A DNA stretch of 64,000 nt from a bacterium (GTDB taxonomy: Bacteria; Patescibacteriota; Minisyncoccia; Minisyncoccales; JAZDGI01). Numbering within the stretch: the first letter of the stretch is position 1; each line of letters begins with the position of its first letter. The stretch spans positions 5,816-69,815 of the forward strand of contig JAZDGI010000005.1 of the NCBI GenBank assembly GCA_043807085.1, read 5' to 3'. Both the position numbers and the translations under genes were made by a program. The notes below the pieces were generated by a model that saw only the letters and a program-made list of their open reading frames with translations, had not been told where the DNA came from and searched no databases. Shown in pieces: positions 1-55,097 of this stretch.

Positions 1-266
1 TCGGGGAGGGCGATAAAAACGACATCGCTCGGCGTTCTAAGATTAATAATGACTGCTCTCGCTATCTCGCTTAGTCTTCTTTTTATCTTGTTGCGCGCAA
101 CGGCTTTTTGGGAAACCTTCAGGGAAACCGAGAAGGCAACCCTCGTCCAACTTAAATCATTCGGCAAAGCCTTTAAGATTAAAAAACCAGCGTTAAAAGC
201 CTTTCCCTTCTTAAAAACCCGGTCAATATCCGCTCTCTTTTTCAGCCTGCACTTAAGGGGCAACAT
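1..266 (-). CDS. rnpA: Ribonuclease P protein component, N-terminal part (gene runs off the window start)
   Basis: Not in the ORF track because it is cut by the window edge. Reverse translation from ATG at 266 gives MLPLKCRLKKRADIDRVFKKGKAFNAGFLILKALPNDLSWTRVAFSVSLKVSQKAVARNKIKRRLSEIARAV. This fits the RnpA pattern (..FSVSKK..AV.RN.IKRRLRE..). It lies directly downstream of rpmH, the classical arrangement. Confidence 0.8.
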   Translation of the reverse strand, partial: MLPLKCRLKKRADIDRVFKKGKAFNAGFLILKALPNDLSWTRVAFSVSLKVSQKAVARNKIKRRLSEIARAVIINLRTPSDVVFIALP

Positions 267-286
267 TTGATTTATATATTAAGAGA

Positions 287-421
287 TCAAACGGTTAATC
301 TGCGGCGCTTCTTTTTCCGCCGGTTAGCGACGACCCTTCTCCCTCCGCCGCTCTTTTGTCTTTTTAAAAATCCATGAGATCTCTTTCTTTTTTTCTTTTT
401 AGGCTGGTAAGTAAAACTCAT
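287..421 (-). CDS. rpmH: 50S ribosomal protein L34
   Basis: 44-aa ORF below the ORF-track cutoff: MSFTYQPKKKKRKRSHGFLKRQKSGGGRRVVANRRKKKRRRLTV. This is the L34 signature (TYQP..rKR...HGF..R). It ends in TGA and sits upstream of rnpA, divergent from dnaA. Confidence 0.93.
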   Translation of the reverse strand: MSFTYQPKKKKRKRSHGFLKRQKSGGGRRVVANRRKKKRRRLTV

Positions 422-521
422 AATAATTAATAATCGCAAAAAAATAAGGCCGTGTCAATGTTTTTGTCGTCCGCACAGGTTCTCCACAGGATATCAACAA
501 AAAGTTTTATTTTATATCAAA

Positions 522-549
522 TTTACATTTATCCCTTGATGAGTATAAT
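522..549 (+). promoter_or_regulatory. Sigma70-type promoter of dnaA (TTTACA-16 nt-TATAAT); predicted leaderless transcript
   Basis: TTTACA at 522..527, a 16-nt spacer, then TATAAT at 544..549. The dnaA ATG starts at 556, 6 nt after the -10 element, and there is no Shine-Dalgarno. Confidence 0.55.
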
Positions 550-555
550 TAAAAC

Positions 556-1905
556 ATGACCAACGAAGAGCTTTGGCAAGCGGTTCTAGCCCAAATCCAG
601 CTGACTATTTCTTCAGCCAATTTCACCACTTGGTTTAAAAACACGGGCATTGTTTCAATTGGCCAGGGAGAGGCGGCAATCTCCGTGCCAAACTCGTTTG
701 CCAAGGAATGGCTTGAACAAAAATACAAAAAGCAGATTTTAAAAATTATTCACAGCCTAAACGAAGAGGTTAAAGACGTTAGGTATTTGATTGAAAAAAC
801 GGAATCAAAAACCATCAGAAGGCCGGCGGTTTCTTTCCCGGAACCCGGACAGCTTGACTTCCAGGAATTCAAAACCGACAAAGAAACCAATCTTAACCCT
901 CGTTATACTTTTGACAATTTCATCGTCGGCTCGTTTAACGAACTGCCTCACGCCGCGGCCTGGGCCACGTCAAAAAATCCGGGCGCGGTTTACAATCCTC
1001 TTTTTATCTACGGAGGAGTGGGGCTTGGGAAGACCCATCTTCTTCAGGCCCTGGGCAACGAAATCGTTAAAAATTTTCCACAAAAAAAAGTAAAGTACGT
1101 TGCTTCGGAAAAGTTTACTTCTGGCGTAATAACTTCTATAAAAAATCGGGAGATTGAAGCCTTTAAGGCAAAATACCGGCTCATTGACGTTTTGATTATT
1201 GACGATATCCAGTTCTTGGCCGGGAAAGAAAAGACCCAGGAAGAATTCTTCCACATTTTCAACGGCCTTTACGAAAAGAGCAAGCAGATTATCCTTTCCT
1301 CTGACAGGCCGCCAAAGGCTATTCAGGCCCTGACAGAAAGATTGCGATCCAGGTTTGAGGGAGGCATGATCGCTGACATCAGCTCGCCCGACTATGAAAC
1401 AAGAGTGGCGATTCTTAAGGGCAAATGCCAAGAAAAAAACATTAATTTCCCAGAAGAGGTTTTAGGCTTTATTGCCAATAATATTCAGAGAAACGTCAGA
1501 GAGTTGGAGGGAGCTCTAAACCGCTTGGTCGCCCACCAAAAACTCCAAAACCAAACGCTGGACATTGAAGCAGCCAAAGCCCTGTTAAAGAGCTTCCTTC
1601 TCTCGCCAAGCAGGATAATCAGCGTAAAAAAAATAATCCAGTCGGTCGCAGAGCTTTACGATCTTAAAGAAAAAGATCTTTTACTGACCTCAAGGAAAAA
1701 AGAAATTGTCAGGCCCAGACAAATAGCAATGTATCTGATGAGAGAAGAAACTAAAAGCTCTTTCCCTTTTATCGGCCGCAGGTTTGCCGGGAAAGACCAC
1801 ACGACAGCCATTCACGCCTTTCAAAAAATCGCCAGAGAGCTGGAAAGCGACCAGGAGCTAGCCGAAGAAATTTCACTGATTAAAGAGAGGATATATAACG
1901 GCTGA
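556..1905 (+). CDS. dnaA: Chromosomal replication initiator protein DnaA
   Basis: 449 aa. AAA+ Walker A (GGVGLGKTHLL), Walker B (LIIDDIQF), sensor motifs and the C-terminal DNA-binding domain (RQIAMYLMRE...FAGKDHTTAIHA). Confidence 0.98.
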   Translation: MTNEELWQAVLAQIQLTISSANFTTWFKNTGIVSIGQGEAAISVPNSFAKEWLEQKYKKQILKIIHSLNEEVKDVRYLIEKTESKTIRRPAVSFPEPGQLDFQEFKTDKETNLNPRYTFDNFIVGSFNELPHAAAWATSKNPGAVYNPLFIYGGVGLGKTHLLQALGNEIVKNFPQKKVKYVASEKFTSGVITSIKNREIEAFKAKYRLIDVLIIDDIQFLAGKEKTQEEFFHIFNGLYEKSKQIILSSDRPPKAIQALTERLRSRFEGGMIADISSPDYETRVAILKGKCQEKNINFPEEVLGFIANNIQRNVRELEGALNRLVAHQKLQNQTLDIEAAKALLKSFLLSPSRIISVKKIIQSVAELYDLKEKDLLLTSRKKEIVRPRQIAMYLMREETKSSFPFIGRRFAGKDHTTAIHAFQKIARELESDQELAEEISLIKERIYNG

Positions 1906-2096: not shown

Positions 2097-3260
2097 ATGA
2101 AAATTATTATTCTGCAGGAAAAATTAAAACAAGGACTTAATCTCGTAGAGAGAATGGCGTCAAAACTTACAACTCTGCCGATTTTAAATAACATTTTGCT
2201 GAAAACAGAAAAAAACTTTCTTAATATTGCGGCCACCGATCTTGAGGTTGGCATAAACTGGTGGGTCTTAGCTAAAACCGAGGAAGAAGGCTCTTTGGTT
2301 TTACCATCGCAAACAATATCCAGCCTGATTAATTTTTTACCTAACAAGCCCTTAAGTATTAACTCAAAAGGGCTGATCGCCAACTTGGAATGCGAGAATT
2401 ATAAGTCAACCGTGAAAAGCCTTGACCCAAACGAATTTCCCGCTATACCCGTTCTTTCTGACGGCGAGAGCTTGGAGCTTCCGGCCGGCCTCCTGTGTGA
2501 AGGACTTAGCCGCGTGGCCGGCATTGCCGCCCCCTCAACAACTAGGCCGGAAATCTCCGGAGTGTATTTTATTTTTCAAAAAGGCATGGTTAAAATGGTG
2601 GCTACCGACAGCTTTAGGCTGGGAGAAAAAACTATTATTAATAAAAAAGACGGAGAAGTAGGCAAGGATCGCTCTTTCATTTTGCCCCAAAAGGCGGCTC
2701 GCGAAGTTATTAATATCTTTGGCCAGAGAGAAGGGGATGTGAAAATTTATTTTTCGCCAAATCAGGTAATGTTTGAGGCCTCAATGGCCGAAACCAAGCA
2801 TCCGCAAGTCCAGCTTGTTTCTCGTTTGATTGAGGGAGAGTTCCCTGACTATCAAGAGATAATTCCCCAGACATACACGAGCAGGGTAGCTGTTTTAAAA
2901 AAGGAGCTTTTAAATCAGGTTAAGGCTGCCGGCTTGTTCAGCGGCCGGACCAACGAGATAAAGTTAAAAATAAATCCAAAAACAAAAGGCGAGGGTGAGG
3001 TTGAAATTATGAGCCAAAGCCAAGATCTCGGAGAGTACCGCGGCCTGATTCGGTCCGAAGTAAAAGGCAAGGGGCTAGAGATTTCTTTTAATCATCGCTT
3101 TCTGCTGGAAGGGTTGTCCAGCCAGTCTTCCGATCAGGCGAAAGACGGAAAAAACGAAGAAATTATTTTTGAATTAACCGGCGAGGATGGGCCAGCTATT
3201 TTAAAGACGGACCAGGAACCGGGCTTTGTTTATGTTTTAATGCCGATTAAAAAAGGCTAA
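2097..3260 (+). CDS. dnaN: DNA polymerase III beta sliding clamp
   Basis: 387 aa. Typical N-terminus (MKIIILQEKLKQGLNLVERMAS...PILNNILLKTE), three-domain length, directly downstream of dnaA. Confidence 0.95.
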   Translation: MKIIILQEKLKQGLNLVERMASKLTTLPILNNILLKTEKNFLNIAATDLEVGINWWVLAKTEEEGSLVLPSQTISSLINFLPNKPLSINSKGLIANLECENYKSTVKSLDPNEFPAIPVLSDGESLELPAGLLCEGLSRVAGIAAPSTTRPEISGVYFIFQKGMVKMVATDSFRLGEKTIINKKDGEVGKDRSFILPQKAAREVINIFGQREGDVKIYFSPNQVMFEASMAETKHPQVQLVSRLIEGEFPDYQEIIPQTYTSRVAVLKKELLNQVKAAGLFSGRTNEIKLKINPKTKGEGEVEIMSQSQDLGEYRGLIRSEVKGKGLEISFNHRFLLEGLSSQSSDQAKDGKNEEIIFELTGEDGPAILKTDQEPGFVYVLMPIKKG

Positions 3261-3268
3261 CTTATTAG

Positions 3269-4261
3269 ATGCGGCAGTTAAGGTTTTTATTTTTATTTCT
3301 CGCCGCCGCCATTTTAATGGCGGCCTTTGATTTTGTTTTTGTCTTATTCTCTTTGCCGCAAGTCGCAGATGTTTTACCCTTAGACGGAGAGCGGAACGTT
3401 TCAGAGAGAGCTGTGATTACCATACGTTTTAACAAGCCGGTTTCCAGGCAAGAGCTGAAGCATTTAATTTTTCCCGAAACTTACGGCGAGTGGAAATTTA
3501 CAGACCCTTTGATTAAAAATCATTTATTCAAAACATTAACTTTCATTCCGGCAGAAAAATTCAGTCCGGGAACGCAGTTTTTTGTAAGATTAGAAAATAT
3601 CAGAGGGTTCGGACTTGGCGCGGAAAACTTTTTTGCTTTTTCTTTTAGGACTGCGCCGGACAAAGAGGCTCTGGCAAAGAGGGTCACCTTGCTTGAAACC
3701 CCCTTGGATTGGCAAGATCATAAGCTGTCTTGCGAGGCGGCCTCTTTAAAAATGGCGCTTTGCGGGAAAGGGATAAGGGTTTCCGAGGAAGAAATAATGG
3801 CAGAAATAGGCGTTGACACGACCTCCAGGCAGGGAAAGGTCTGGGGGGACCCTTATGAAAAATTTGTCGGGGAGATTGATGGCAGAATTTGTCAAACAGG
3901 CTATGGGGCTTATTGGCCGGCAGTAGCCCGGGCGGCTCTTAAGTGGAGGGAAAGCGAAAGTTTCACGAATTGGAATTTGGAAAATTTAATTAACGAGATT
4001 GAGCAGAAAAATCCAGTTGTCGTTTGGGGGGTACTCCCTGATAAGCCATTGACTGATTGTTCTTGGTATACGAGAGAGGGAAAATATGTAAAAGCTTTTA
4101 GAGAGGCGCACGTCAGATTGCTGATAGGGTTTGTCGGGCCGGCAGATTCCCCTTCTCAAATTATTTTGAACGATCCTTTGGCTGGCCAGCTTTACTGGTC
4201 AACCGCTGACTTTCTTAAGAATTGGAGCGCGTTTAATAACAGCGGAGTGGCGGTCAGGTAG
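3269..4261 (+). CDS. Membrane-anchored protein with an Ig-like domain and a C39-like (YvpB-type) cysteine peptidase domain
   Basis: 330 aa. N-terminal TM helix and a Big_5/SbsA-like segment (RAVITIRFNKPV). The C-terminal half has a candidate Cys nucleophile (KLSCEAASLKMAL) and His (REAHVRLLIGF), as in peptidase_C39_2 proteins. Confidence 0.6.
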   Translation: MRQLRFLFLFLAAAILMAAFDFVFVLFSLPQVADVLPLDGERNVSERAVITIRFNKPVSRQELKHLIFPETYGEWKFTDPLIKNHLFKTLTFIPAEKFSPGTQFFVRLENIRGFGLGAENFFAFSFRTAPDKEALAKRVTLLETPLDWQDHKLSCEAASLKMALCGKGIRVSEEEIMAEIGVDTTSRQGKVWGDPYEKFVGEIDGRICQTGYGAYWPAVARAALKWRESESFTNWNLENLINEIEQKNPVVVWGVLPDKPLTDCSWYTREGKYVKAFREAHVRLLIGFVGPADSPSQIILNDPLAGQLYWSTADFLKNWSAFNNSGVAVR

Positions 4262-6173
4262 AAGAGAGCAGGGGGATCGCTTTTTCCAGGAATTGATGCC
4301 AAATAGGCGCCGCAAGCATGGCGCCTGGCTTGCCGGGCGAGATATTGTTGCTGTTTCCCGCCCAGACACCGACAACGATTGACGGGGTATAGCCAATAGT
4401 CCAAGCGTCGCGGTAGTCCTGGGAGGTTCCGGTTTTAACGGCAACCTTATAATTATCAAAATAAAGGGCGGACCTCGGGCCAAAAAGCGGAGTGCGGGCT
4501 TCATTATCCGCCAAAATATCAGTGATTAAATCAGCCACGCTGCTTTCTATGACTCTTTTTGGGTCTTTTTTGTTTTCAAAAACGATATTGCCTTTTCCGT
4601 CTTCAATTTTTAAAATCGCTGTTGGCGCTAGTTTTACTCCGCTGTTGGCGAAAACGCCGTAAGCCGAAGCCATCTCCAGCAGCTTTACTTCCCAGCCCCC
4701 AAGAACGATTGATGGCCCAAAGGGAGGCTTTAAAGTCGTGATGCCGAGGGATTGGGCTGTTTTTATGCTGTTTTCCAGACCGGCCAACTCCAGAAGAACC
4801 TTTACCGAAGGAACGTTCAGCGACTGGGCCAGGGCTTCTCTTAGCGTAACCGGACCGCGGAACTTCCCGTCGTAGTTTTGGGGCGTATATTCTTTTTCTC
4901 CCCAGACGCCAAAATTAGTCGGTTCGTCTACAGCGACATATTTGTCGTCGTATCCGTTTTCAAAGGCCGTGGCGTAAACAAACGGCTTAAAAGAGGAGCC
5001 TGGTTGCCGGCCAGGATTTTCTTTTGTGCCGACGACAACATTAAATTTTGGGTCGAATAAACAGGTTTTGCCAGAAACGCAATCTTTCGGATAGGGCTCG
5101 GCGTTGTAATCTCCGGTTCCGACGGTTAGAGCCAGCACCTCGCCGGTTTTTGGGCTGATGGCCACTAGTCCGGCATTGTGGACGTTGGCTGGCTTGTTTT
5201 TTTCAACCCCTTCTCTGGTGGCTTTTTCAGCTGCCTCCTGCAGTCGCCAGTCAAGAGTCGTGTAAACTTTTAACCCGCCAGACATTAAAAAATCTTCGTC
5301 GTATTTTTCTTCCAGCTGCTGCTTGACCCACAGGGTGAAATAAGGAGCTTTTAGCTGGGCCTGTTTTTCTTTGAAGTTTATTTCCCGCTGTTTTGCCGCG
5401 CCAGCTTCTTCTTCTGAAACAAACCCGACCTTAGCCATTCTATTTAAGACATAATCTTTTCTCGCCAAAAGACTTGCTTTGTTTTCGCCGTAAGGAGAGA
5501 GATAGGACGGCCCCTGGATTAGAGCCGCCAGGGTCGCGGCCTCCTCAAGAGAAAGATCAGAAGAAGACTTTTCAAAATAAGTTTGGCTGGCCGCTTCAAC
5601 GCCGTAAGCGTTTTGGCCGAAAGGAATTTGATTGAGATACCATTCTAAAATCTGATCTTTTGAGTAGCGGCGATCCACCTCAATGGCCAAGACAATTTCC
5701 CTGATTTTTCTTTCAGCGGTTTTTTTGTTGGATAGAAAAGTGGATCTTATCAGCTGCTGGGGAATGGTTGATCCTCCGTAGGTAGGCTTGCCGATTTTTA
5801 AATCAGCCAAAATGGCTCTGGCGATTCCTTTTGGGTCAATGCCCCAATGGCTGTAAAAACTAGAGTCTTCCGCGGCGATGACCGCGTTTTTTAAAATATC
5901 CGGAATTGAGGACAAAGGCGTCCACGTCCTTTTTTCTTCGCCGTAGACTTCATACAAAAGAACCTGGCCTGTGCGGTCGTAGATTTTGGTTGATTGAGGG
6001 ATCTGTCTCTCGGTGAAAACTTCCGGTCTGGGGAAGTCTTTAGTGTAATAGAAAAACAAAAACAGGCTTCCGAACAAAAAAATCGCCGAGCCCCCGGCTA
6101 AAATCTTTAGAGCCAGAAACCATTTCCCGGAGCTTTTTAGGATATTTTTTCGCCTGAAGACGCGTCTGGGCAT
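4254..6173 (-). CDS. Class A penicillin-binding protein (glycosyltransferase + transpeptidase)
   Basis: 639 aa. N-terminal TM anchor, GT51 motifs (EDSSFYSHWGIDP, GGSTIPQQL), transpeptidase SxxK (SSFKP) and KTG (VKTGTS). Confidence 0.92.
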   Translation of the reverse strand: MPRRVFRRKNILKSSGKWFLALKILAGGSAIFLFGSLFLFFYYTKDFPRPEVFTERQIPQSTKIYDRTGQVLLYEVYGEEKRTWTPLSSIPDILKNAVIAAEDSSFYSHWGIDPKGIARAILADLKIGKPTYGGSTIPQQLIRSTFLSNKKTAERKIREIVLAIEVDRRYSKDQILEWYLNQIPFGQNAYGVEAASQTYFEKSSSDLSLEEAATLAALIQGPSYLSPYGENKASLLARKDYVLNRMAKVGFVSEEEAGAAKQREINFKEKQAQLKAPYFTLWVKQQLEEKYDEDFLMSGGLKVYTTLDWRLQEAAEKATREGVEKNKPANVHNAGLVAISPKTGEVLALTVGTGDYNAEPYPKDCVSGKTCLFDPKFNVVVGTKENPGRQPGSSFKPFVYATAFENGYDDKYVAVDEPTNFGVWGEKEYTPQNYDGKFRGPVTLREALAQSLNVPSVKVLLELAGLENSIKTAQSLGITTLKPPFGPSIVLGGWEVKLLEMASAYGVFANSGVKLAPTAILKIEDGKGNIVFENKKDPKRVIESSVADLITDILADNEARTPLFGPRSALYFDNYKVAVKTGTSQDYRDAWTIGYTPSIVVGVWAGNSNNISPGKPGAMLAAPIWHQFLEKAIPLLSST

Positions 6174-6203
6174 AGTAATTATTTTAGCAAAAAAAGACCC
6201 CTC

Positions 6204-6231
6204 TTGACAAGGGTTCTAGGTTTGCTAAAAT
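6204..6231 (+). promoter_or_regulatory. Near-consensus sigma70 promoter (TTGACA-16 nt-TAAAAT) firing into a 450-nt non-coding region
   Basis: TTGACA at 6204..6209 and TAAAAT at 6226..6231. The promoter is embedded in an 11-bp inverted repeat: ATTTTAGCAAA at 6181..6191 and TTTGCTAAAAT at 6221..6231. Confidence 0.6.
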
Positions 6232-6243
6232 AAAAATATAAAT

Positions 6244-6324
6244 ATGAATAAGATAGCTAGTCAAAAATTCTGTTTTTATTGCTGGTGCCATAACTCCAGA
6301 AGCTGGCTGTTTTGTTTTGTGTAA
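6244..6324 (+). CDS. Candidate 26-aa Cys/aromatic-rich small ORF (leader peptide or small protein)
   Basis: The ATG lies 12 nt after the -10 element. Peptide: MNKIASQKFCFYCWCHNSRSWLFCFV. Its 3' end covers the first copy of a duplicated AGCTGGCTGTTTT(T)GTTT segment that can pair with CAGCCAG at 6341..6347. No homology is recognisable. Confidence 0.25.
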   Translation: MNKIASQKFCFYCWCHNSRSWLFCFV

Positions 6325-6340
6325 CCCTCGTCTTTAAGAG

Positions 6341-6372
6341 CAGCCAGTTTCTTTAAGGAGCTGGCTGTTTTT
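6341..6372 (+). terminator. Intrinsic-terminator-like hairpin (CAGCCAG / CTGGCTG + T-run)
   Basis: CAGCCAG at 6341..6347 pairs with CTGGCTG at 6361..6367, followed by TTTTTGTTT. The left arm can alternatively pair with CTGGCTG at 6304..6310. Confidence 0.45.
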
Positions 6373-6689
6373 GTTTGGCTTGAGGCGCGGCCGCGACTAG
6401 TATCGGCCGCTCTCCAGGCTGAAAATTTAAAAATCAGCCAGAGGGCCTGGGTTCTGGCGAAAAAAAAGAAAGGAGAAAAACATGCATCCTCGTTTTCACC
6501 CCGTATGTCCAATGTGGCCTTAAATAGATGAGGCCAAACCAGCGGGCGGAGAAGGGTCGTTCTTCTCCGTTCGCTGGGACTCGGCGAGAAGGAGTCGCCG
6601 TCAACAAAGGCCGAGGAGAGAGTAGAGATACTTTCTCCTTGGCCCCCTTTCATTCTTCTCGGTCTTAGTATGTTATATTTTGAAACAAT

Positions 6690-7820
6690 ATGGCCCTGTT
6701 TAAGTTTTTGTATGCCAACACAAGGAATAAAGACATGCTTTACGCGGCGGGGATGTTTCTTCCAGACCCGACCTTTTTGGTTGGCGTTAATTTCAAAAAT
6801 TATATTTTTTTAGACCAGAGGACCTTGAGACTGTTCAAAGAAAAAAACAGAAACCCCGGAATTAAGGCCGTTCTTTTAGACCCCCTCTTAGAGGAGGCTA
6901 AAAAGATAAAAGAAAAAACGACGTTAGCCGAGAAACTGGCCTTCTGCCTTTTTAAAAAATATAACCTTTTTGGAAGGCTGGTTGACGTTCCTTCGGATTT
7001 TCCCCTTTCTTTGGCCGATTTTCTTAGGGCGAAAGGAGCGATTCTCTCCCCTGAAAATCCCTTCTGGCCGAAGAGAGATCGAAAATCGCCAGAGGAGGTG
7101 GAGATAATGCGGCAAGGCGTCAAAAAAATCCAAAAAGTTTTCGCTCTTATCCGGAACATTCTTGCAGATGCCCGTATTGTCCGCGGCAAAATTGTTTATC
7201 AAAATAAGCTTCTCACTAGCGAATTCCTTAAAAAGAAAGCCGAACTTCTGTTGATAGAAGAAGGGATGAGGAGCGAAGAGGGAATTATTATCTCTTCTGG
7301 AGGGCAATCTGCTCTCCCTCATCATCCTGGTAGCGGACCGATAAGCCCTTGCGCCCCTGTTATTTGCGATATTTTTCCTCGGGATTCAGAAACAGGGTAT
7401 TTTGTTGATATGACCAGAGTCTTTTTGAAAGGAAAGCCATCGGCCAAGCTTCAAAAGATGTACGCTGCGGTAAAAAATGCCCAAGCAGAAGCAATAAAAA
7501 AAGTCAGGCCAGAGGTAAAAGCCTTTGAAATTTATGACGCATGCAATAACTTTTTTAAAAAATTGGGATATGCAACGCGAGGGGACAAGGGGTTTATCCA
7601 TGGGGCTGGCCACGGCGTCGGTCTGGACATTCACGAGCCGCCTTTTTTAGCTGGCTGGTCAGACTCGGTTCTCGTCCCGGGCAACGTGCTGACGATTGAA
7701 CCCGGCTTGTATTATCCCAAGATCGGCGGAATACGCATTGAGGATATGGTTTATGTGTCTAAAAAAGGATGCGAAGTTCTCTCTGCTTGCTCCGAGAAAG
7801 AAAGCTGGGTTATCTCCTAG
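6690..7820 (+). CDS. M24 family Xaa-Pro aminopeptidase/dipeptidase
   Basis: 376 aa. Metal-ligand motifs of the pita-bread fold (FVDMTR, HGAGHGVGLDIHEPP, EPGLY, GGIRIEDMV). Confidence 0.88.
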   Translation: MALFKFLYANTRNKDMLYAAGMFLPDPTFLVGVNFKNYIFLDQRTLRLFKEKNRNPGIKAVLLDPLLEEAKKIKEKTTLAEKLAFCLFKKYNLFGRLVDVPSDFPLSLADFLRAKGAILSPENPFWPKRDRKSPEEVEIMRQGVKKIQKVFALIRNILADARIVRGKIVYQNKLLTSEFLKKKAELLLIEEGMRSEEGIIISSGGQSALPHHPGSGPISPCAPVICDIFPRDSETGYFVDMTRVFLKGKPSAKLQKMYAAVKNAQAEAIKKVRPEVKAFEIYDACNNFFKKLGYATRGDKGFIHGAGHGVGLDIHEPPFLAGWSDSVLVPGNVLTIEPGLYYPKIGGIRIEDMVYVSKKGCEVLSACSEKESWVIS

Positions 7821-7832
7821 TTTGTCTTCGGC

Positions 7833-9077
7833 TTGAGATGGATGTATATTAAAAGAATGAAGAGAAATACCGATCCTAAAAAAATAGAAGAAGCAGTATC
7901 CTCTCGTTTTATCGAAAGAATCTATCCATCAAAAAAGGCTCTAGAAGATTTTTTGAAATCAGGCAGAAGAATGGATATTTACATTGGTTTTGATCCTACA
8001 GGGCCAGAGCTTCATTTAGGACATTCTACAAATTTTTTGCTTCTTAAAAAATTTCAAGAATTAGGGCACAAAGTTATTCTTCTCGTCGGCGATTTTACTG
8101 CTCGGATTGGCGACCCAACGGGAAAGTCAATTACCAGGAGAGCTTTAACGAAAGAGCAGGTTTTAGAAAATTGCAAAACCTACGAAAACCAAGCGAGTAA
8201 AATCTTAGATTTTAATTCTAATGCCAACCCTGTTGTAATAAAATTTAACAGCCAGTGGCTGAGCAAACTAACGCTAGAAGACGTTATTAAATTAACTGCC
8301 CATTTTACAGTTAACCAAATGATCCAAAGAGATATGTTTCAACAGAGGATAGAAGAAAAGAAGGAAATTTATATAAATGAGTTTTTGTATCCTATGTTGC
8401 AAGGATATGATTCAGCAACACTTGGTGTGGATATTGAGGTTGGCGGTACAGACCAAACCTTTAACATGTTAGTAGGGCGAGACCTTGTCAGGATTTATAA
8501 AAATAAAGAAAAATTCGTTATTACAACTCCCTTGTTAATTAATCCCAAAACCGGCAAAAAATTGATGTCAAAAAGTGAAGGAGGTTATATCGCCCTGAAC
8601 GATTCTCCTCAAGAAATGTATGGGAAAGTGATGGCTTTACCCGATGAAGTAATTATCTCTTGCTTGCAATTATGCACAGAGATGCCATTGGTAGAGATTC
8701 AAGTGATGGAAAAAAATCTAAAACAAAAGCAATGTAATCCCCGCGATTTAAAAATAAAATTGGCCAAGGAAATCGTTAGTATCTATCATGGTCAAAAATT
8801 TGCGCTTTTAGCGGAAAAAGAGTTTGAAAAAGTTTTTAAAGACAAAGAGCTGCCGACAGAAATTCCGGGAGTTTTTGTGCGGGAAAAAACCCTAAACATC
8901 CTTGACTTGTTGGTTAAAACAAAGCTAGCCGCTTCCAAGTCCGAAGCCAAAAGGCTGGTTTTGCAAAAAGGAGTTAGGGTGGATGGAGCTGTTTTAGACG
9001 ACTGGAAAGCGGTTGTAGCGATAAAAAAAGACTTGGTGGCGCAAGTCGGCAAAAGAAAAGTCGTTAAGGTTATTTAA
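7833..9077 (+). CDS. tyrS: Tyrosine--tRNA ligase
   Basis: Class I motifs HLGH and KMSKS-like (KLMSKS), with a C-terminal S4 domain (SKSEAKRLVLQKGVRVDG). The track start is TTG at 7833; in-frame ATGs at 7842 and 7857 are alternative starts. Confidence 0.95.
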   Translation: MRWMYIKRMKRNTDPKKIEEAVSSRFIERIYPSKKALEDFLKSGRRMDIYIGFDPTGPELHLGHSTNFLLLKKFQELGHKVILLVGDFTARIGDPTGKSITRRALTKEQVLENCKTYENQASKILDFNSNANPVVIKFNSQWLSKLTLEDVIKLTAHFTVNQMIQRDMFQQRIEEKKEIYINEFLYPMLQGYDSATLGVDIEVGGTDQTFNMLVGRDLVRIYKNKEKFVITTPLLINPKTGKKLMSKSEGGYIALNDSPQEMYGKVMALPDEVIISCLQLCTEMPLVEIQVMEKNLKQKQCNPRDLKIKLAKEIVSIYHGQKFALLAEKEFEKVFKDKELPTEIPGVFVREKTLNILDLLVKTKLAASKSEAKRLVLQKGVRVDGAVLDDWKAVVAIKKDLVAQVGKRKVVKVI

Positions 9078-10313: not shown

Positions 10314-10732
10314 ATTTTTACTTTTCTTTTTAAGAGTAGGATACCAAATCCTGAGAAAATAGCAACGGCTATGGCTGTGGACAAGACCCAAAAGAATCCC
10401 GAAGGATTAGGCGGTTGTTCTTTTGGCTGTTCTTTGAGTTGTTCTTTCTGCTCTTGCTCGAAAAGTTCGGCAGGCAGAGCTTTTTCAACCCAGGCCAATC
10501 CTTGTTTTTTAATATCCTCAACTCTTAATTTGCTGATGCCTTTTATTCTAACCAGGTCTTCCAAGGAAGAAAACGGCCTTAAAGAAACCAATTCCAGGCC
10601 TCGAGCCTCTCCTATATGGACAATTTTGATTAGATCGCTCAGAGGAGCGGTATTAATGTCTATTTTTTCTGCGGCGAACACTCCGCGCCAGGCAAAGAAG
10701 AGGAGAAGGACCACTCTTGACAAAAGCTTCAT
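10310..10732 (-). CDS. comEA: ComEA-like helix-hairpin-helix DNA-binding protein
   Basis: 140 aa. Signal/TM at the N-terminus, HhH repeats (INTAPLSDLIKIVHIGEARGLELV...LEDLVRIKGISKLRVEDI), C-terminal TM helix. Confidence 0.8.
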   Translation of the reverse strand: MKLLSRVVLLLFFAWRGVFAAEKIDINTAPLSDLIKIVHIGEARGLELVSLRPFSSLEDLVRIKGISKLRVEDIKKQGLAWVEKALPAELFEQEQKEQLKEQPKEQPPNPSGFFWVLSTAIAVAIFSGFGILLLKRKVKI

Positions 10733-10756
10733 AATATATTACAATACGAAAGATAG

Positions 10757-10876
10757 GCCCTAAAACTGGGGGCAGGGAACTTTTCTTAGCCGGATAGCTT
10801 GGCTCAGGCGAAGCTACTCCTCGGAAAAGCTCTAAACTTCTGTTCCAATAACTAAAGTTGCCCCCAGTTTTAGGGC
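10757..10876. other. 120-nt structured element closed by a perfect 18-bp inverted repeat
   Basis: GCCCTAAAACTGGGGGCA at 10757..10774 pairs with TGCCCCCAGTTTTAGGGC at 10859..10876. Nested helices: CTTTTC/GAAAAG, TAGCTT/AAGCTA, GGAAC/GTTCC. It lies 7 nt after the PilB-like stop and 24 nt before the comEA start. Confidence 0.7.
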
Positions 10877-10883
10877 TTTGTCG

Positions 10884-26895: not shown

Positions 26896-26967
26896 GTCCC
26901 CATAGCTTAACGGATAAAGCGCGGCCCTCCGAAGGCCGAAATCGAGGTTCGATTCCCCGTGGGGACA
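26896..26967 (+). tRNA. tRNA-Arg (anticodon CCG)
   Basis: 72-nt cloverleaf. Acceptor GTCCCCA/TGGGGAC, D arm GCTT/AAGC, anticodon arm CGGCC-CTCCGAA-GGCCG, T loop TTCGATT. There is one A-C mismatch in the T stem, and CCA is not encoded. Confidence 0.85.
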
Positions 26968-29625: not shown

Positions 29626-30597
29626 ATGAAAGACATTGATTTGATCCGCAGGCTAAATAAAGATTGGCAGCTAGGGAATATAAAAATTAAAAAAGCTGGC
29701 GGCCAGACGAACCGCAATTATATTATTGAGAGTAAAGGCCGGAAGTTTTTTGTTCGTTTGCCGTGGGAAACCAGAGTAATTAACAGACAGATTGAGGGGA
29801 AAAATATTTTAGCTCTAAGCCGCAATAAAAAACTGCGGGAAATTTTACCGAAATATTATATCTATATTCTAAGAGGCAAAAATATTTTATCTTCAAAGAG
29901 CGAAAAATTTGATCTGCCCGATGGCGCAATGGTAATGGAATATATCCCCGGGAGGATATTCACGCTTTCTTTATTCAAAATAAAGAAATATCAGGAGAAA
30001 TTGGCGCGAATGTTTTATGCTTTTCATGCAAGCAAAGTCTGTTTCAAGAATAAATACAGCGTTTTCCGAGACGAGCTTGCAAAATACAGGGCTGCCGTTG
30101 AAAGGCGCGCTATCCCCAAATTTATAGGCAAAAAAACTATCCGGACTCTTAAAAAAATTGAAGCGGATATTAAAAATAAAATCCCCCGATTAAAAAGGGG
30201 CGTTCCGGCGCATAATGATTTTATTTTCCAAAATTTTATAGTCGGGAATGATGGGAAAATATATCTTTTGGACTTTGAATACGCCGGAACGAATATTAAA
30301 GGAGGACTTCTCTACGACTTCGCGTTTTTATTCGCTGACAATCTTTTTAGAAAGCCGGCTATGACCAAAGAATTATTTAACGAGTTTTTGAAAATAGCAG
30401 ATAAAGTATATGGGAAGGTTCTTGATAGGAGCCAGATTTATCAACTGGCCGCAGTCATCCCTGTTATGCAGGTTTGGTGGGGGTTATTGCGTTATTTTGA
30501 TTCTAAATCAAAAAAAGAGAAAATCTTTTTCAAAGAATATATTTTGAAAAGAACGAACTGGCTGGATAAAATAAAAAGAGGAGTCAGGGAATCTTGA
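29626..30597 (+). CDS. Choline/aminoglycoside-kinase-family phosphotransferase
   Basis: 323 aa. Brenner motif (PAHNDFIFQNF) and metal-binding LLDFEYAG. Confidence 0.8.
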   Translation: MKDIDLIRRLNKDWQLGNIKIKKAGGQTNRNYIIESKGRKFFVRLPWETRVINRQIEGKNILALSRNKKLREILPKYYIYILRGKNILSSKSEKFDLPDGAMVMEYIPGRIFTLSLFKIKKYQEKLARMFYAFHASKVCFKNKYSVFRDELAKYRAAVERRAIPKFIGKKTIRTLKKIEADIKNKIPRLKRGVPAHNDFIFQNFIVGNDGKIYLLDFEYAGTNIKGGLLYDFAFLFADNLFRKPAMTKELFNEFLKIADKVYGKVLDRSQIYQLAAVIPVMQVWWGLLRYFDSKSKKEKIFFKEYILKRTNWLDKIKRGVRES

Positions 30598-31363
30598 CTC
30601 CGGTGAAAAAACAAACGCTTTCGGCCACCCCCTCCGCGAAATCAAGAGGAGATTCGTGGCCGTTCTCTCCCCTGATTTTTACGAGCTCCTTAAAGTCTGA
30701 TCGGGCGTTGACGGGGCAAGCCAGAAATCCGACGCGGTCGGCGGCTGGTTTGCCGCCCAGCGAGTCGTCTATCAGAAGCATTTCCGAAAGAGGAACGCCC
30801 GTTATTTCGGCGAGTCTGACGGCACCCGTTCCCTTGTCTATCCCTTTGGGGCTGATATCCACTGCGATGCTTGAAACATTAATTTCCAAGAATTCAATAA
30901 TGTCTCGCAGGGATTCTCTTATTATCCGTTCGCAATCAGCTAAAGAAGCGGTGCTGTCTTTTACCTCAATGGCGACGTTTACCTCTTTCCCGACATAAGG
31001 AAAAAGAAATGGATATTTCGTCGCTAGCCGCGGGATTCTTTTACGGTTGATTTCGTCAAACACCTCCTTCATCTCCGGCGTGAAAGCGGGGTGATACCTT
31101 CTCTCTTGGGTTTTTGGATTGAATAAAACCAGACCGCTTTCTGTTATCGACCAAGAGTCCGGAATTTCCATAAACCTAGAAATTCCGAGGACGTATGACG
31201 CCTCCCTGCCCGTACAAAATCCGAAGCGGGCTATTTTGCCCAGATTAGCCTGCTCAATAAGCCAGGAAAGCTTAGGCAGCCCGGAAAATACGCTGATAGG
31301 GGTTTTCCCGCTGGTTGACACAATAGTATCGTCAATGTCGGCCAGAATATATCTTATCGGCAT
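30584..31363 (-). CDS. HAD-superfamily (type IIB-like) phosphatase
   Basis: 259 aa. Motif I (ILADIDDTIV) and motif IV (LLIDDSLGGKP). It converges on and overlaps the kinase gene by 14 nt. Confidence 0.75.
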   Translation of the reverse strand: MPIRYILADIDDTIVSTSGKTPISVFSGLPKLSWLIEQANLGKIARFGFCTGREASYVLGISRFMEIPDSWSITESGLVLFNPKTQERRYHPAFTPEMKEVFDEINRKRIPRLATKYPFLFPYVGKEVNVAIEVKDSTASLADCERIIRESLRDIIEFLEINVSSIAVDISPKGIDKGTGAVRLAEITGVPLSEMLLIDDSLGGKPAADRVGFLACPVNARSDFKELVKIRGENGHESPLDFAEGVAESVCFFTGVKIP

Positions 31364-39426: not shown

Positions 39427-39555
39427 AACTCCGATTCAAAAATAGGGTAAGATAGGGTGCGGATATCTCGGTCTTTAAAAAAAATCAGAAAGATTTTAAT
39501 TATTATAAGGTTAAGGTGAAAAATTTTCTATAGTCTATAGAAAAGGAGTTTCAAA

Positions 39556-39687
39556 ATGTGCGATCATCCGGTTCAGTTAGCCTTTGAGGGGTTTCCGCCG
39601 CCTGAAGAGAAGCAACCGCCCACCGTTATTATAACCCATTCCCCACCAGAGGGAGTTGGAGTAGAGCGCAGAACCCTTGAGATGTGA
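39556..39687 (+). CDS. Candidate 43-aa proline-rich small protein
   Basis: AAAGGAG lies 7 nt upstream of the ATG. Peptide: MCDHPVQLAFEGFPPPEEKQPPTVIITHSPPEGVGVERRTLEM. A 17-nt palindrome (39526..42) precedes it and a strong terminator follows. Below the ORF-track cutoff. Confidence 0.4.
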   Translation: MCDHPVQLAFEGFPPPEEKQPPTVIITHSPPEGVGVERRTLEM

Positions 39688-39711
39688 GATACAGTTCTTA
39701 AAGGCCAAAAA

Positions 39712-39737
39712 GCCGCCATATATATTTATATGGCGGC
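39712..39737. terminator. Bidirectional terminator hairpin (11-bp stem)
   Basis: GCCGCCATATA at 39712..39722 pairs with TATATGGCGGC at 39727..39737, between the small ORF (+) and rplT (-). Confidence 0.75.
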
Positions 39738-39741
39738 CTAT

Positions 39742-40775: not shown

Positions 40776-40801
40776 AAATAATTACTAAATAATTATTGCT
40801 G

Positions 40802-41145
40802 TGGAGGTGGTGGGAATTGGACCCACGTCCGAAAAGTTTTTTCAAAATAATTCTACAGGCTTAGTCCGGTTTTAGTAAGTATAGAATTTAAACCGGGCGA
40901 AAGTTCTATGCTTTGAATCCAAATGTTTTTCAATAGTCTTTCTGGATTCAGGAGAGAACTATTTATCTCGCTGATATGACACCTAATTTTGCCTAGCGAG
41001 AATCAGCAAATTAGATGCCGCTTAAGCGTAAACTAAAGCGGGTTTTTGAAATAAGTTGGCACTTATTATTTTTGCCGTTTTTTAAAAGTTCCGGCAACTT
41101 TGCCTGCTTATTTTAATCGGCTCTTCGTCAAGTCCGATCACCCCC
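40802..41145 (-). ncRNA. ssrA: tmRNA (SsrA)
   Basis: 5' GGGGGUGAUCGGACUUGACG... and a 3' tRNA-like end GGACGUGGGUCCAAUUCCCACCACCUCCA. The acceptor stem GGGGGUG/CACCUCC has the G3:U pair. The tag reading frame at 41022..41060 is GCC AAC ... GCT TAA = ANLFQKPALVYA-stop, preceded by AUAAGU (compare E. coli AUAGUC-GCA AAC). Confidence 0.9.
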
Positions 41146-44594: not shown

Positions 44595-47500
44595 ATGGAT
44601 GTAAACTTTCCGGAGCTTGAGGAGAAAATTTTAAAATTCTGGCGGGAAAACCTGATTTTTAAAAAATCAATTTCACGGCGCAAAAAGAGCCGCAATTTTG
44701 TGTTTTACGAGGGCCCGCCCACGGCCAACGGAAAGCCTGGAATCCATCATGTTTTGACCAGGGTTTTTAAAGACATTATCTGCCGCTATAAAACTATGCG
44801 GGGTTTTAGAGTTGAGAGAAAGGCCGGCTGGGACACTCACGGCTTGCCGGTAGAGCTGGAAGTTGAAAAAAAATTAGGGTTGAAAAATAAAAAAGACATT
44901 GAAAAATACGGCATAGCTAAATTTAATAAAAATTGCCAAGAATCGGTTTGGCAATATAAAAAAGAATGGGAGAAATTAACCGACAGGATTGGTTTTTGGC
45001 TTGACGAGGACAATCCGTACGTCACCTATCAAACGGAATACATTGAAACCGTTTGGCATATTTTGAAGCGGATTTACCAAAAAGGCCTGCTTTATCATGA
45101 TTACAAGGTGGTTCCTTATTGCCCAAGGTGTGGAACTACCTTATCCAGCCACGAGGTTGCCCAAGGATACGAAAAGATCAAAGATCCTTCTATTTTCGTC
45201 AAATTCAGGATTAAAAATCCGGAATTCAAAGATTCTTATTTGCTGATTTGGACCACTACTCCCTGGACGTTGCCAGGCAACGTGGCGATTGCCGTTAATC
45301 CCGAGATGGCTTATGCCAAAATCAAATCGCCAGATATAGAAGAGTATTTAATTTTAGCTAAAGACAAAATAGCCGAACGGCAAATAAAAGGAAAAATAGT
45401 CCAAGAATTTAAGGGAAAGGATTTAGCCGGATTGGCTTACGAGCCAGCGTACGCTGACGAGGATTTTTCTAAAAGCGCCTACAGAGTCATTTTGGCTGAT
45501 TTTGTTTCTTTGGAAAGCGGCACTGGTTTAGTTCATATTGCCCCGGGTTTTGGATTGGAAGATATGGAAGCTGTAAAAAATCAAAACACAGAATCAAAAA
45601 GGCAGGGTCTGCCCGAACTCCCAATTTTATTGCCAGTGAACGAAGAAGGGAAATTCGCGCTTGACGCCAAGAAGTGGGCCGGAATGTTTGTCAAAGAAGC
45701 GGACCCTTTGATTATTAACGATCTGAAAGAAAGGGGTTTTTTGTTCGCTGAAGAATTATACGAACACGATTACCCTTTTTGCTGGCGCTGTCATTCTCCG
45801 CTGCTTTATTACGCCAGAAAATCTTGGTTTATTCAGACGACCAAAATTAAGGACGATCTTATTGGGAATAATCAAAAAATAAATTGGGTTCCGGTTCATT
45901 TGAAAGAAGGAAGATTCGGCGAGTGGTTAAGAGATTTGAAAGACTGGGCTTTGACCAGAGAAAGATATTGGGGAACTCCCCTGCCTATTTGGCAATGCAA
46001 GACCTGCGGAAAGCAGGAAATTATCGGCTCTAGAAAAGAACTATTCGGCCGAGCTTCTTCGGGCAGCAGATATTTTATTTTCCGCCACGGGTATTCTTTA
46101 AGGCAGATTAAAAAGGTATCTTCCTGCTGGCCGGAAAAAGTACCATTTCCCTTGACGAAAAAAGGAGAGAGGGAGGTTGAGGTCGCGGCGAAAAAACTAA
46201 AAAATAAAAAAATTGACTTAATTTTTTCCTCCGACCTGTTGAGAGCGAAGCAAACCGCCCGAATTATCGCCAAAGAAACCGGAGCCAAAATAATTATCGC
46301 CAAGCAATTGAGGGATTATAACGTGGGAGTTTTTAACTATAAAAATCCGAAATTATCTTGGGAATATTTGGAGAAAAGCGAAAATCCGATTTTAACGAAA
46401 TTGCCCAAGGGAGAGAGTCTGGCAAATATCAGAAAAAGAATGTACGAATTTTTAAAAAGAGTAAATGAAAAATACCCGGCAAAAAACATTGTTATCGTGT
46501 CTCACGAGCTCCCTTTGACGATTTTAGAGCAGACCTTAAGCGGCTTGGAATTAGAAGAAATATTGAAACAAAGGGCGCAGCGGAAAATAAATCCAATCGC
46601 TACGGCCGAATGGCGGGAGATAAAGTTTAAAACCCTTCCCTTTAACGGCAATTACGAAATAGATCTCCACCGCCCTTATATTGACGAAATGAAATTTCAG
46701 TGTCTGGGTTGTCAGGGTGAGATGGAAAGGGTTTCTGAAGTTATAGATTGCTGGTTTGATTCGGGCTCTATGCCCTTTGCCCAGGCGCGCTGGCCGTTCA
46801 GCGGAAACTTGAAGCCTGAACCCTCTGGCGCGAAACCTCCGAAACTGTTCCCGGCAGATTATATTGCCGAAGGGGTTGATCAGACGAGAGGCTGGTTTTA
46901 CACCCTATTGGCGATCTCCACGCTTTTAGGATTTGGTTCTCCCTACAAGAATGTCATTTCCTTGGGCCATATTTTAGATGAAAAGGGAGAAAAAATGTCA
47001 AAATCGAAAGGTAATATTGTTGATCCGTGGTATATTGCCGGCCGGTACGGGGCAGACGCCGCCCGTTGGTATTTTTATACCGTCAACCAGCCCGGCGAAG
47101 CGAAATTGTTTTCAGAGAAAGATATTGACCAGGCATTAAAAAGATTTATTTTGATATTTTGGAATTGTTTTACCTTCTGGGAAACATACAAAAAAAATTC
47201 AAAAGTCAAAAGCCAAAAGACAAAACCAAAGAATGTTTTAGATAGGTGGATTATTTCCAGGCTGAACCGGCTGGTTTTAGAAGCGACCGAATCTTTGGAC
47301 AGATTTGATGTGACAGGCGCGGCTAGAATTATTGAAAATTTTGTAATCAACGATTTGTCTTTGTGGTATATTAGAAGATCCAGAAAGCGGTTCAAAGAGA
47401 TTGAGAATTTTTTAGCCCTTATTCTTTTGGCTGTATGCAAACTTGGCGCGCCCTTCTTTCCTTTTTTGAGCGAAGAAATATACCAAAAAATTTCCGGTTG

Positions 47501-54370: not shown

Positions 54371-55068
54371 GTATTTTATATATCGTCGCGACTCCCATCG
54401 GCAATCTTGAGGATATTACCAAAAGAGCCCTCCGCGTTTTGGCGGAGGTTGATTTGATTTTGTGCGAGGATACCAGACAAACCCAAAAATTATTAAATTT
54501 TTATAATATTAAAACTAAAACTTTAAGCTATCATCAGCACTCAAAGCTTCAAAAAATTGGCCAGATTATTCAGCTTTTGAAATTGGGCAAAAATTTGGCC
54601 TTGGTTTCGGACGCCGGCACGCCGGGAATTTCAGACCCCGGCAATCAATTAGTCGCGCAGGTTGCATCCGCGCAAATTACACAGGTGCAACCTGTGCCTG
54701 GATCTTCGGCTCTGACTGCGGCAGCCAGCGTTTCCGGTTTTCCGATGGATAAGTTTTTATTTTTGGGCTTCCCGCCAATGAAAAAGAAAAGGAAAAAATT
54801 TTTTGAAGAGATTCTAGGCTCAAAATACCCGGTGATCTTTTACGAGTCGCCGCACAGGATCATAAAAACTCTAAAGGAGCTAAGCTCCTTCGTTGAGGGG
54901 CTTAGCTCCTTAGATATAATGGTTGGACGAGAACTAACTAAAAAGTTTGAAACGATTTATAGGGGAAAAATTGGAGAGATAACGAAGACTTTAGAAAAAG
55001 AAGGTCCTCGAGGCGAATTCGCGGTTGTTGTCAATCGGAATATTGCTAATTTGCCGCTGCTTTGCTAA
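54367..55068 (+). CDS. rsmI: 16S rRNA (cytidine1402-2'-O)-methyltransferase
   Basis: The family N-terminus MSILYIVATPIGNLEDITKRALRVL starts at ATG 54367, in an ATGA overlap with the upstream stop. The track start at 54247 is rejected. Confidence 0.9.
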   Translation: MSILYIVATPIGNLEDITKRALRVLAEVDLILCEDTRQTQKLLNFYNIKTKTLSYHQHSKLQKIGQIIQLLKLGKNLALVSDAGTPGISDPGNQLVAQVASAQITQVQPVPGSSALTAAASVSGFPMDKFLFLGFPPMKKKRKKFFEEILGSKYPVIFYESPHRIIKTLKELSSFVEGLSSLDIMVGRELTKKFETIYRGKIGEITKTLEKEGPRGEFAVVVNRNIANLPLLC

Positions 55069-55097
55069 AAAAAGGAGAGCTGGTACTGTTCCACCTC

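Follow-up and report, generated by a model that had tools for sequence, protein, structure and literature searches.

A candidate leader-peptide attenuator followed by a second structured leader module upstream of an M24 peptidase gene in a patescibacterial genome

The stretch of DNA analyzed here, referred to as the window, comprises 64,000 nt of the 71-kb contig JAZDGI010000005.1 (metagenome-assembled genome GCA_043807085.1, positions 5,816 to 69,815 of the forward strand; GenBank locus tag prefix V1705_) from an uncultivated, groundwater-type bacterium of the Patescibacteriota, and the element in question occupies a gap of 516 nt (6174-6689) between two divergent genes, PBP1A on the minus strand (4254-6173, ATG at 6173, with Transgly and Transpeptidase domains) and a metallopeptidase gene of the M24 family on the plus strand (Xaa-Pro type; 6690-7820, 376 amino acids). 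We consider it probable that this gap encodes a transcription attenuator that depends on the ribosome, and behind it a second structured leader module that carries a micro-open reading frame (ORF) of conserved peptide sequence, both of them upstream of M24. The element, all of whose parts lie on the plus strand, is best read from its sequence as the cis-acting mRNA leader of a cassette, consisting of leader and M24 gene, that was inserted between PBP1A and tyrS, the gene for tyrosyl-tRNA synthetase (7857-9077, plus strand) and the ancestral divergent neighbor of PBP1A. Module 1 (6204-6376) would provide a promoter, a short ORF (ORF1), an antiterminator strand (A1) and an intrinsic terminator (T1), while module 2 (6377-6660) would be a folded RNA that carries a second small ORF (uORF2) led by a Shine-Dalgarno (SD) sequence and ends in a further hairpin (T2) before M24.

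Patescibacteria, also known as the Candidate Phyla Radiation (CPR), have tiny genomes with few recognizable regulators, and to our knowledge almost nothing is known of how their genes are controlled. A full-text literature search returned no account of attenuation by leader peptides in Patescibacteria, and no such element appears to have been described previously in this group. A conserved attenuator that operates on a leaderless mini-ORF would show that CPR bacteria sense their state via translation itself, and would provide a first cis-regulatory RNA family for these organisms.

A candidate attenuator in module 1

The leader promoter consists of TTGACA (6204-6209) and TAAAAT (6226-6231) separated by 16 nt, matches 11 of the 12 consensus positions and carries a TG at 6223-6224 (TGcTAAAAT); it lies at 6204-6231, exactly where a preliminary description of this DNA, made from the sequence without database searches, had placed it. 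A promoter scan returned 3 promoter-like sites against 0.7 expected. Only 12 nt downstream of the -10 box begins ORF1 (6244-6324, plus strand), a (near-)leaderless ORF of 26 codons that encodes the peptide MNKIASQKFCFYCWCHNSRSWLFCFV; its coordinates, length and two Trp residues agree with the preliminary description, which had counted five Cys and five Phe where the peptide contains 4 Cys and 4 Phe. A survey of the upstream regions of 55 genes in the window found SD sequences almost never, and a TATAAT-like box typically 6-8 nt 5' of the ATG of genes that are first in their operon, which suggests that leaderless or near-leaderless initiation is widespread in this host. Since SD sequences are rare and -10 boxes stand close to the start codon, a leaderless start of ORF1 is plausible.

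The 3' end of ORF1 contains strand A1 (6298-6314), which pairs with 6336-6353, and this same segment forms the 5' arm of T1 (6336-6376; arms 6336-6353 and 6355-6372), a hairpin of 18 pairs (-22.6 kcal/mol) followed by UUUUUGUUU with a U-run at 6368-6376. The A1 duplex has an energy of -25.2 kcal/mol, and none of 1000 dinucleotide shuffles gave one as strong. Underlying the two alternative pairings is a duplication, in which 6298-6319 and 6356-6377 are 86% identical and can each pair with 6341-6352. Both this duplication around CAGCCAG and the interpretation of the downstream pairing as a terminator with a T-run had been proposed earlier and are borne out by our analysis. In addition, fold prediction indicates that the start region of ORF1 (6242-6262) can also pair with the antiterminator strand.

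A homologous leader was found at the same site in two other lineages, represented by loci L033 and L035 and by loci L017, L018 and L023. At the nucleotide level (nhmmer) the homology reaches E = 2.5e-21 for L033 and E = 0.003 for L035. Short ORFs of the ORF1 type, 24-40 codons in length, are present in L033 (MNFKSVQNCWCHYYPAVSCWRVLI), L035 (MENQNSAIKFCWYHFFPQSAVGEF) and L017 (...SQNTSYWYFYFFFLKEASFGLTKKL), and in all four sequences, including that of the window, there is a TTGACA promoter whose -10 box is followed by an ATG at a distance of 8-17 nt. The peptides have in common a core of the form [C/Y]-W-[C/Y]-[H/F] with aromatic neighbors, which occurs in the variants C-W-C-H, C-W-Y-H and Y-W-Y-F and is encoded at 6280-6291 in the window as C-W-C-H. 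When 913 kb were scanned in six frames with a regular expression, short ORFs bearing this core were found at these sites and at one unrelated place only.

An intrinsic terminator follows ORF1 in all four sequences, and in each of them the strongest upstream partner of the 5' arm of this terminator is the 3' end of ORF1, ending 4-18 nt before the stop codon. The antiterminator duplexes of the window, L033, L035 and L017 have energies of -25.2, -17.6, -15.3 and -16.7 kcal/mol, strengths that were matched by 0, 1, 3 and 1 of 1000 dinucleotide shuffles, respectively, and in L033 and L035 a longer fold prefers the antiterminator. The pairing sequences themselves are entirely different from one lineage to the next (CUGGCUG/CAGCCAG, GUUGGCG/CGCCAAU and GGCUAG/CUAGCC), and it is the geometry of module 1, not its sequence, that is conserved across lineages. 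The ribosome-dependent attenuator logic suggested in the preliminary description is consistent with this recurrence of one arrangement in three lineages, with a significant antiterminator in every sequence.

Conservation of the peptide is restricted to part of it. The Trp core is kept in L033, L035 and L017, and the C-terminus is not conserved; a 1-nt indel between L033 and L035 shifts the frame of the C-terminal third of ORF1, with the stop codon remaining within a few nt. Since such a changed C-terminus is tolerated, ORF1 behaves as a leader peptide and not as a functional toxin or protein. Likewise, the number of Cys residues falls from 4 in the window, where they are scattered, to 3 in L033, 1 in L035 and none in L017. 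As only the Trp and its aromatic or Cys neighbors are conserved, a leader dedicated to the sensing of Cys, one of the possibilities raised at first, is unlikely.

From these features the following mechanism can be proposed. A transcript started by the near-consensus promoter would begin a few nt before the AUG of ORF1. A ribosome that reaches the ORF1 stop codon would mask the antiterminator strand at 6298-6314, so that T1 could form and transcription would halt. A ribosome stalled at the conserved core (codons 6280-6291 in the window), which lies 7-20 nt 5' of the antiterminator strand, would leave this strand free, the antiterminator would form and RNA polymerase would continue. If ORF1 were not translated at all, its start region (6242-6262) could sequester the A1 strand. 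Translation of ORF1 and uORF2, the direction of the switch and the feeding of M24 and tyrS by read-through of T1 are what we infer from this arrangement. The signal would then probably be the supply of charged aromatic or Cys tRNAs, or, as an alternative, a peptide-specific stall. There are hints of tyrosine or aromatic amino acids as the signal because of the link to tyrS, the enzyme encoded behind the L017 leader, which resembles DIT1/PvcA, and the Tyr codons in the cores; DIT1/PvcA-like enzymes belong to a family that uses Tyr. The gene tyrS is found downstream in the window, L033 and L017, while M24 and the cargo of L035 fit no single amino acid.

This organization resembles the trp, his, pheA, thr, leu, ilv and pheST/pheM leaders of E. 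coli, in which a short promoter-proximal ORF precedes an intrinsic terminator, the 3' end of the ORF supplies a strand of an antiterminator that excludes this terminator, and a third pairing can sequester the antiterminator strand when there is no translation. As in the case of pheST, an aminoacyl-tRNA synthetase gene lies downstream, here tyrS. Of the features that characterize classical attenuators, the leader ORF, the terminator and an overlapping antiterminator were found, and a run of regulatory codons was not. In contrast to the classical leaders, a [C/Y]-W-[C/Y]-[H/F] motif takes the place of the homocodon run, ORF1 is (near-)leaderless without an SD sequence, the CPR host has no amino-acid biosynthesis, and the cargo varies between an M24 peptidase, a DIT1/PvcA-like enzyme and small Cys-rich ORFs. 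A second parallel is provided by the polycysteine leaderless short ORFs of mycobacteria, which contain consecutive Cys codons and act through masking of a ribosome-binding site (Canestrari et al., bioRxiv 10.1101/834739). Like ORF1, whose window copy is Cys-rich, these short ORFs are leaderless and lack annotation, stand first in an operon transcript and serve as ribosome-mediated sensors; however, the Cys residues of ORF1 are scattered and not conserved, and its switch is built on an intrinsic terminator. Moreover, T-box elements, which occur upstream of tyrS in Firmicutes and others, share with the present leader a structured terminator/antiterminator region and, in purpose, the control of a synthetase by tRNA charging. 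In contrast to them, the leader contains no T-box motif and gave no match to the Rfam T-box model even at E <= 10, and its switch is tied to a translated ORF and not to the binding of a tRNA.

Folded RNA and uORF2 in module 2

The plus strand of 6238-6689 is predicted to fold with -185.5 kcal/mol (z = -8.7), and the minus strand of the same region with -149.7 kcal/mol (z = -4.7), which is 36 kcal/mol weaker. According to these predictions the structure is far beyond chance and belongs to the plus strand. The GC-rich hairpins that had been noticed at first sight of the sequence, at 6382-6414, 6539-6577, 6578-6600 and 6609-6644, are all present. Hairpin C (6382-6414; 4 + 7 bp) shows 5 compensatory pairs relative to L033, and hairpin D (6417-6439; GGCUGA-AAAAUUUAAAAA-UCAGCC), whose loop is 100% conserved in L033, includes a stretch of 21 nt, loop and all, that is identical in the two sequences. 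An alternative closing stem, CCAGG (6414-6418) with CCUGG (6446-6450), is kept in both L033 and L035. Further downstream are hairpin S (6515-6536), which includes the conserved UAAAUAGAU, and hairpin E (6539-6577; 17 bp), which has 7 compensatory pairs relative to L033 and a homologous hairpin in L035. Hairpin F (6578-6600) is specific to the window and not conserved in L033.

Since MAFFT misaligns covarying helices, as it did with these stems, alignments fitted by covariance model and by hand were used instead. In the alignment of window and L033 fitted to the structure model, hairpins C, D, S and E together comprise 42 pairs, of which 98.8% are paired, with 13 compensatory double changes; this count was reached in 0 of 500 shuffles, and slid controls gave at most 3. 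The hand alignment yielded 15 compensatory changes, 7 one-sided changes and no broken pair among 44 pairs, and the hairpins also form in each of the two sequences when it is folded on its own. The search for compensatory changes in relatives, which the preliminary description had envisaged, thus shows the GC-rich hairpins to be a genuine RNA structure that is conserved. R1, a covariance model built from window positions 6377-6580, retrieved L033 with 75 bits (E = 3e-23) and L035 with E = 0.002. R1 also gave a weak match in the window at 46110-46235 (plus strand), inside a large gene (12.6 bits, E = 0.04), which is probably due to chance.

Downstream of hairpin D lies uORF2 (6482-6523, plus strand; 13 codons and a stop), which the preliminary description had not listed and which encodes MHPRFHPVCPMWP*. 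It is preceded at a distance of 6 nt by the SD sequence AAGGAG (6470-6475), for which L033 has AGGAGG and L035 AAGGAGG. Strong SD sites are exceptional in the window; apart from that of uORF2 they stand, for example, before 30584-31363 (minus strand) and before 25011. The homologue in L033 encodes MHPRMYSHPVLCPIWP*, in which 11 of 13 aligned residues are identical. The two reading frames differ by 6 synonymous codon changes, including Arg CGT versus AGA, by 2 non-synonymous changes and by 2 in-frame indels, a pattern that points to selection on the peptide and has the signature of purifying selection on the amino-acid sequence, as judged from two lineages. RNA structure and reading frame overlap in hairpin S: the final codons of uORF2 (UGG CCU) make up its 5' arm, and the stop codon lies at the base of its loop. 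A compensatory change from U:A to C:G in this hairpin coincides with a synonymous change of the Pro codon.

Module 2 ends in T2 (6609-6659), a terminator-like hairpin of 16 bp (6609-6644; -28.9 kcal/mol) with the pyrimidine-rich tail CCCUUUCAUUCUUCU just 5' of M24. A strong hairpin followed by a U-rich or pyrimidine-rich tail is also found immediately before the cargo gene in L033 and L035. Searches for an alternative pairing that links uORF2 to T2 were negative or marginal. Sequestration of the uORF2 SD sequence was likewise marginal, with 31 and 14 of 1000 shuffles as strong and a partner that differs between the sequences.

Sequence-specific arrest peptides include TnaC, SecM, MifM and SpeFL, and leaders that depend on Pro codons include MgtL and MgtP; a Pro-stop ending is a poor context for termination, as in TnaC. 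With these, uORF2 has in common that it is a very short leader ORF of conserved sequence, rich in Pro and ending in Trp-Pro-stop. It differs in having no sequence similarity to any of them, and stalling on uORF2 is only a candidate function. The position of a Pro-rich ORF with a Trp-Pro-stop end before a peptidase of the Xaa-Pro type, conserved in two lineages, is nevertheless suggestive of a proline- or peptide-linked stall. In a wider form of this idea, which we regard as rather improbable, the Trp motif of ORF1 and the MHPRxHPVxCPxWP-stop of uORF2 would both be sequence-specific nascent-chain stalling sensors of an undescribed kind, combined in a portable leader cassette that is placed before varied cargo by CPR bacteria, in which most classical regulators and, for the greater part, SD sequences are missing. 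If so, a Pro-rich sensor with a Pro-stop end could tune the Xaa-Pro peptidase to the supply of peptides or proline. Apart from this, the ORF of 13-16 codons beside an Xaa-Pro peptidase gene, with its conserved peptide, is a specific candidate to encode an arrest peptide or micropeptide of a new type.

A cassette between PBP1A and tyrS

PBP1A and tyrS are divergent neighbors in most of approximately 85 PBP1A loci, with gaps of about 30-170 nt, while in the window, L033 and L017 extra cargo is inserted between them. The window PBP1A itself is 65-72% identical to proteins of Paceibacterales and Nealsonbacteria metagenome-assembled genomes, which identifies the source as a Paceibacteria-like member of the CPR. 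Positions 6217-6249 of the window, which include the -10 box of the leader promoter, are 85% identical to the leaderless tyrS promoter of L017, and the cassette of leader and M24 therefore resides inside the ancestral PBP1A-tyrS promoter region. The leader promoter is also kept in L033 and L035. On the opposite strand the PBP1A promoter (6181-6210) has its -35 box TTGTCA at 6210-6205 and its -10 box TAAAAT at 6186-6181, with a spacer of 18 nt and only 7 nt before the ATG at 6173; it is thus of the leaderless type, and its -35 box overlaps that of the leader promoter. Because these two divergent promoters mirror each other, they form an extended inverted repeat. The 11-bp repeat reported in the preliminary description does exist, and its arms are in fact 24 nt long (6179-6202 and 6210-6233; 83% complementary).

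The gene order of L033 is that of the window, i.e. PBP1A, leader, M24 and tyrS. Its M24 gene (2370-3122, minus strand) encodes 250 amino acids, no more than the catalytic domain; the N-terminal domain of the 376-amino-acid protein of the window is missing from it. L033 and L035 are close relatives of each other and both originate from Hainich groundwater; the leaders of L106-L109, extra strains of the same species, are identical to that of L033 and add no information. L035 retains module 1, the closing stem, the SD sequence and hairpin E, while most of module 2 is replaced, so that a different 15-codon ORF and a different cargo stand behind the same attenuator. This cargo includes an SD-led Cys-rich ORF of 66 amino acids (476-676, minus strand) with the pattern CxxxxxC...CPHPDC, possibly zinc-ribbon-like, followed by a gene (3-410, minus strand) without a Pfam match. 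In L017, L018 and L023 the leader is followed by a DIT1/PvcA-like gene and then tyrS. A leader that is reused with varied cargo, always beside tyrS, would offer a handle on what these organisms sense.

The leaders of L033 and L035 lie behind a Y1/IS200-like (RAYT-like) transposase gene bracketed by palindromes that resemble repetitive extragenic palindromic (REP) sequences, GTTAGACGCnnGCGTCTAAC, located at 2345-2366, 3670-3690 and 4400-4420 of L033 and at 1140-1160 and 1870-1890 of L035. In L033 such palindromes also flank the block of leader and M24, which hints at a cassette in mobile or recombinogenic DNA. In the PBP1A-tyrS spacer of L038, L049, L083, L089 and L097, small insertions resembling miniature inverted-repeat transposable elements (MITEs) with the inverted repeats CCCCGTTAGAAAT...ATTTCTAACGGGG separate the tyrS promoter from the start of the gene. 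This spacer is a hot spot for insertions.

The genes downstream of the leader may also possess promoters of their own. TGtTATATT at 6671-6679 (plus strand) could act as an extended -10 box for an M24 transcript with a short leader, and its position resembles the spacing of -10 box and ATG elsewhere in the window. For tyrS, the true start is probably the ATG at 7857 or 7842 and not the TTG at 7833 of the ORF list; the N-terminus from 7857 (MKRNTDPKKIEE...) agrees with those in relatives. A TGtATATT box stands immediately 5' of this start region (7842-7857), and tyrS may have retained its own leaderless promoter, in addition to its probable co-transcription with M24.

Alternative explanations and other features of the window

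Several observations weigh against the proposed control of M24 by an attenuated leader. Both M24 and tyrS have their own promoter-like -10 boxes, and read-through of T1 may therefore matter mainly for uORF2. No significant antiterminator was detected for T2 in the window, where its 5' arm was searched, nor in L033 or L035, so that control of M24 by module 2 is only a possibility. The ORF1 peptides are rich in aromatic residues and Cys, but they show no homocodon run, nor is any one amino acid enriched throughout; without such a run, no particular amino acid can be assigned as the signal. In L033, 17 nt separate the -10 box from the AUG, and the mRNA is thus not strictly leaderless. The alignment of the stems comprises two sequences only and was fitted to a structure model, and the power of covariation is limited with three lineages carrying the element and L033 and L035 being close relatives. 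Furthermore, leader homologues are absent upstream of the other M24 genes that were examined; the closest M24 homologues, at 49-61% identity, are preceded by different genes, such as cupin and NUDIX genes, and have no such leader.

Among the alternatives, it is unlikely, though far from negligible, that the small ORFs are independent genes, with uORF2 (MHPRxHPVxCPxWP) and possibly ORF1 encoding functional micropeptides that bind metal, serve in signaling or are precursors processed by the peptidase. In that case hairpins S and E and T2 would be the 3' untranslated region and terminator of the micropeptide gene, M24 would be transcribed separately and module 1 could attenuate the micropeptide gene, an arrangement that overlaps with the one proposed here. 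Such a role would agree with the conservation of uORF2 as a sequence and not only as a composition, with its SD site being among the few strong ones in the window, with T2 acting as a plain terminator without antiterminator, with the -10-like box of M24 and with the different small ORFs, including the Cys-rich one of 66 amino acids, that L035 has at the same position. However, the peptide is common to two lineages only, it has 13-16 residues with no partner modification genes nearby and no family to join, the C-terminus of ORF1 is not conserved, and cis-acting arrest peptides also show conservation of a short peptide sequence.

The structure of module 2 raises the question whether approximately 6377-6660 could be a non-coding RNA of a new family that acts in trans or binds a protein and in which the small ORFs are incidental. 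Its strong fold (z = -5.8 for 6443-6670), the covarying stems, the perfectly conserved 21-nt stretch of hairpin D including the loop and the lack of a match to an Rfam family would all suit such an RNA. We nevertheless judge this very unlikely, since a non-coding RNA would not be expected to show synonymous changes, in-frame indels and a conserved SD sequence, the element is always found directly 5' of cargo genes and on the same strand, and L035 replaces most of module 2 yet keeps module 1. Of the new structured RNA that the preliminary description had considered, the conserved structure is retained, while a free-standing RNA fits less well than a cis-acting mRNA leader with an SD sequence and uORF2.

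A search with Rfam covariance models, as the preliminary description had proposed, gave no indication of a known family: with Rfam 15, whose families include the Thr, Phe, His, Trp and Leu leaders, T-box, PyrR, 6S, SRP and RNase P, no family reached the gathering threshold in the region, and none was credible at E <= 10. The best score was that of SSRC34_2 (29.6 bits against a threshold of 48); the Thr and Phe leader models, for which the threshold is 55, scored 20.8 and 15.8 bits. The L033 leader had no Rfam match either.

There is at most a slim chance that the region is a functionless scar of a mobile element, or that its real feature is the hypothetical protein of 125 amino acids that GenBank annotates on the minus strand (6276-6653; MFH1180842.1, V1705_00340), opposite the leader. 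The insertion hot spot, which holds a Y1/IS200-like transposase and REP-like palindromes (L033 and L035) as well as MITE-like elements (other loci), is in accordance with a scar, and the ORF was called by the Prokaryotic Genome Annotation Pipeline. However, the compensatory changes, the conservation of peptides and the conserved geometry of the switch argue for selection, and the cupin and other genes beside M24 in relatives show no resemblance to the region. Searches (tblastn) with the cupin and other M24-flanking proteins and with the DIT1/PvcA protein of L017 returned only noise, and a decayed gene was rejected. A search of 1.84 billion cluster representatives with the 125-amino-acid ORF gave a single weak match (E = 3.9e-06), repeat-derived and of low complexity, and the corresponding region of L033 contains no equivalent of this ORF. 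It was rejected as a real protein and is very probably a gene-calling artefact, as the preliminary description had suspected; the leader proposed here would mark this annotated hypothetical protein as such.

A type I toxin-antitoxin system, with ORF1 encoding a small toxin that an antisense RNA represses, had also been considered at the outset and is barely credible: ORF1 is indeed short, aromatic and Cys-rich, a long hairpin encloses its start codon and a promoter-like site exists on the minus strand (6264-6235), but this site is a match in AT-rich sequence, the hydrophobic stretch of the peptide is broken by the polar HNSRS so that no continuous transmembrane segment or hydrophobic helix remains, the C-terminal third is frameshifted between L033 and L035, the L017 version has 40 amino acids with a charged N-terminus, and the antiterminator/terminator geometry would be left unexplained.

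With regard to the rest of the window, the earlier statement that this genome has almost no intergenic space proved to be overstated, as further apparently gene-free gaps of 300-730 nt occur at 10392-10883, 54371-55097 and 39427-39741. None of these three gaps matches an Rfam family, and no second copy of the gap region between PBP1A and M24 is present in the window. The first of them contains a near-consensus promoter (TTGACA-17-TACAAT at 10717-10745), and another a bidirectional terminator-like hairpin (54429-54448). The only RNAs in the window that Rfam recognizes are a transfer-messenger RNA (40799-41145, minus strand; 135.6 bits) and a tRNA (26896-26967, plus strand).

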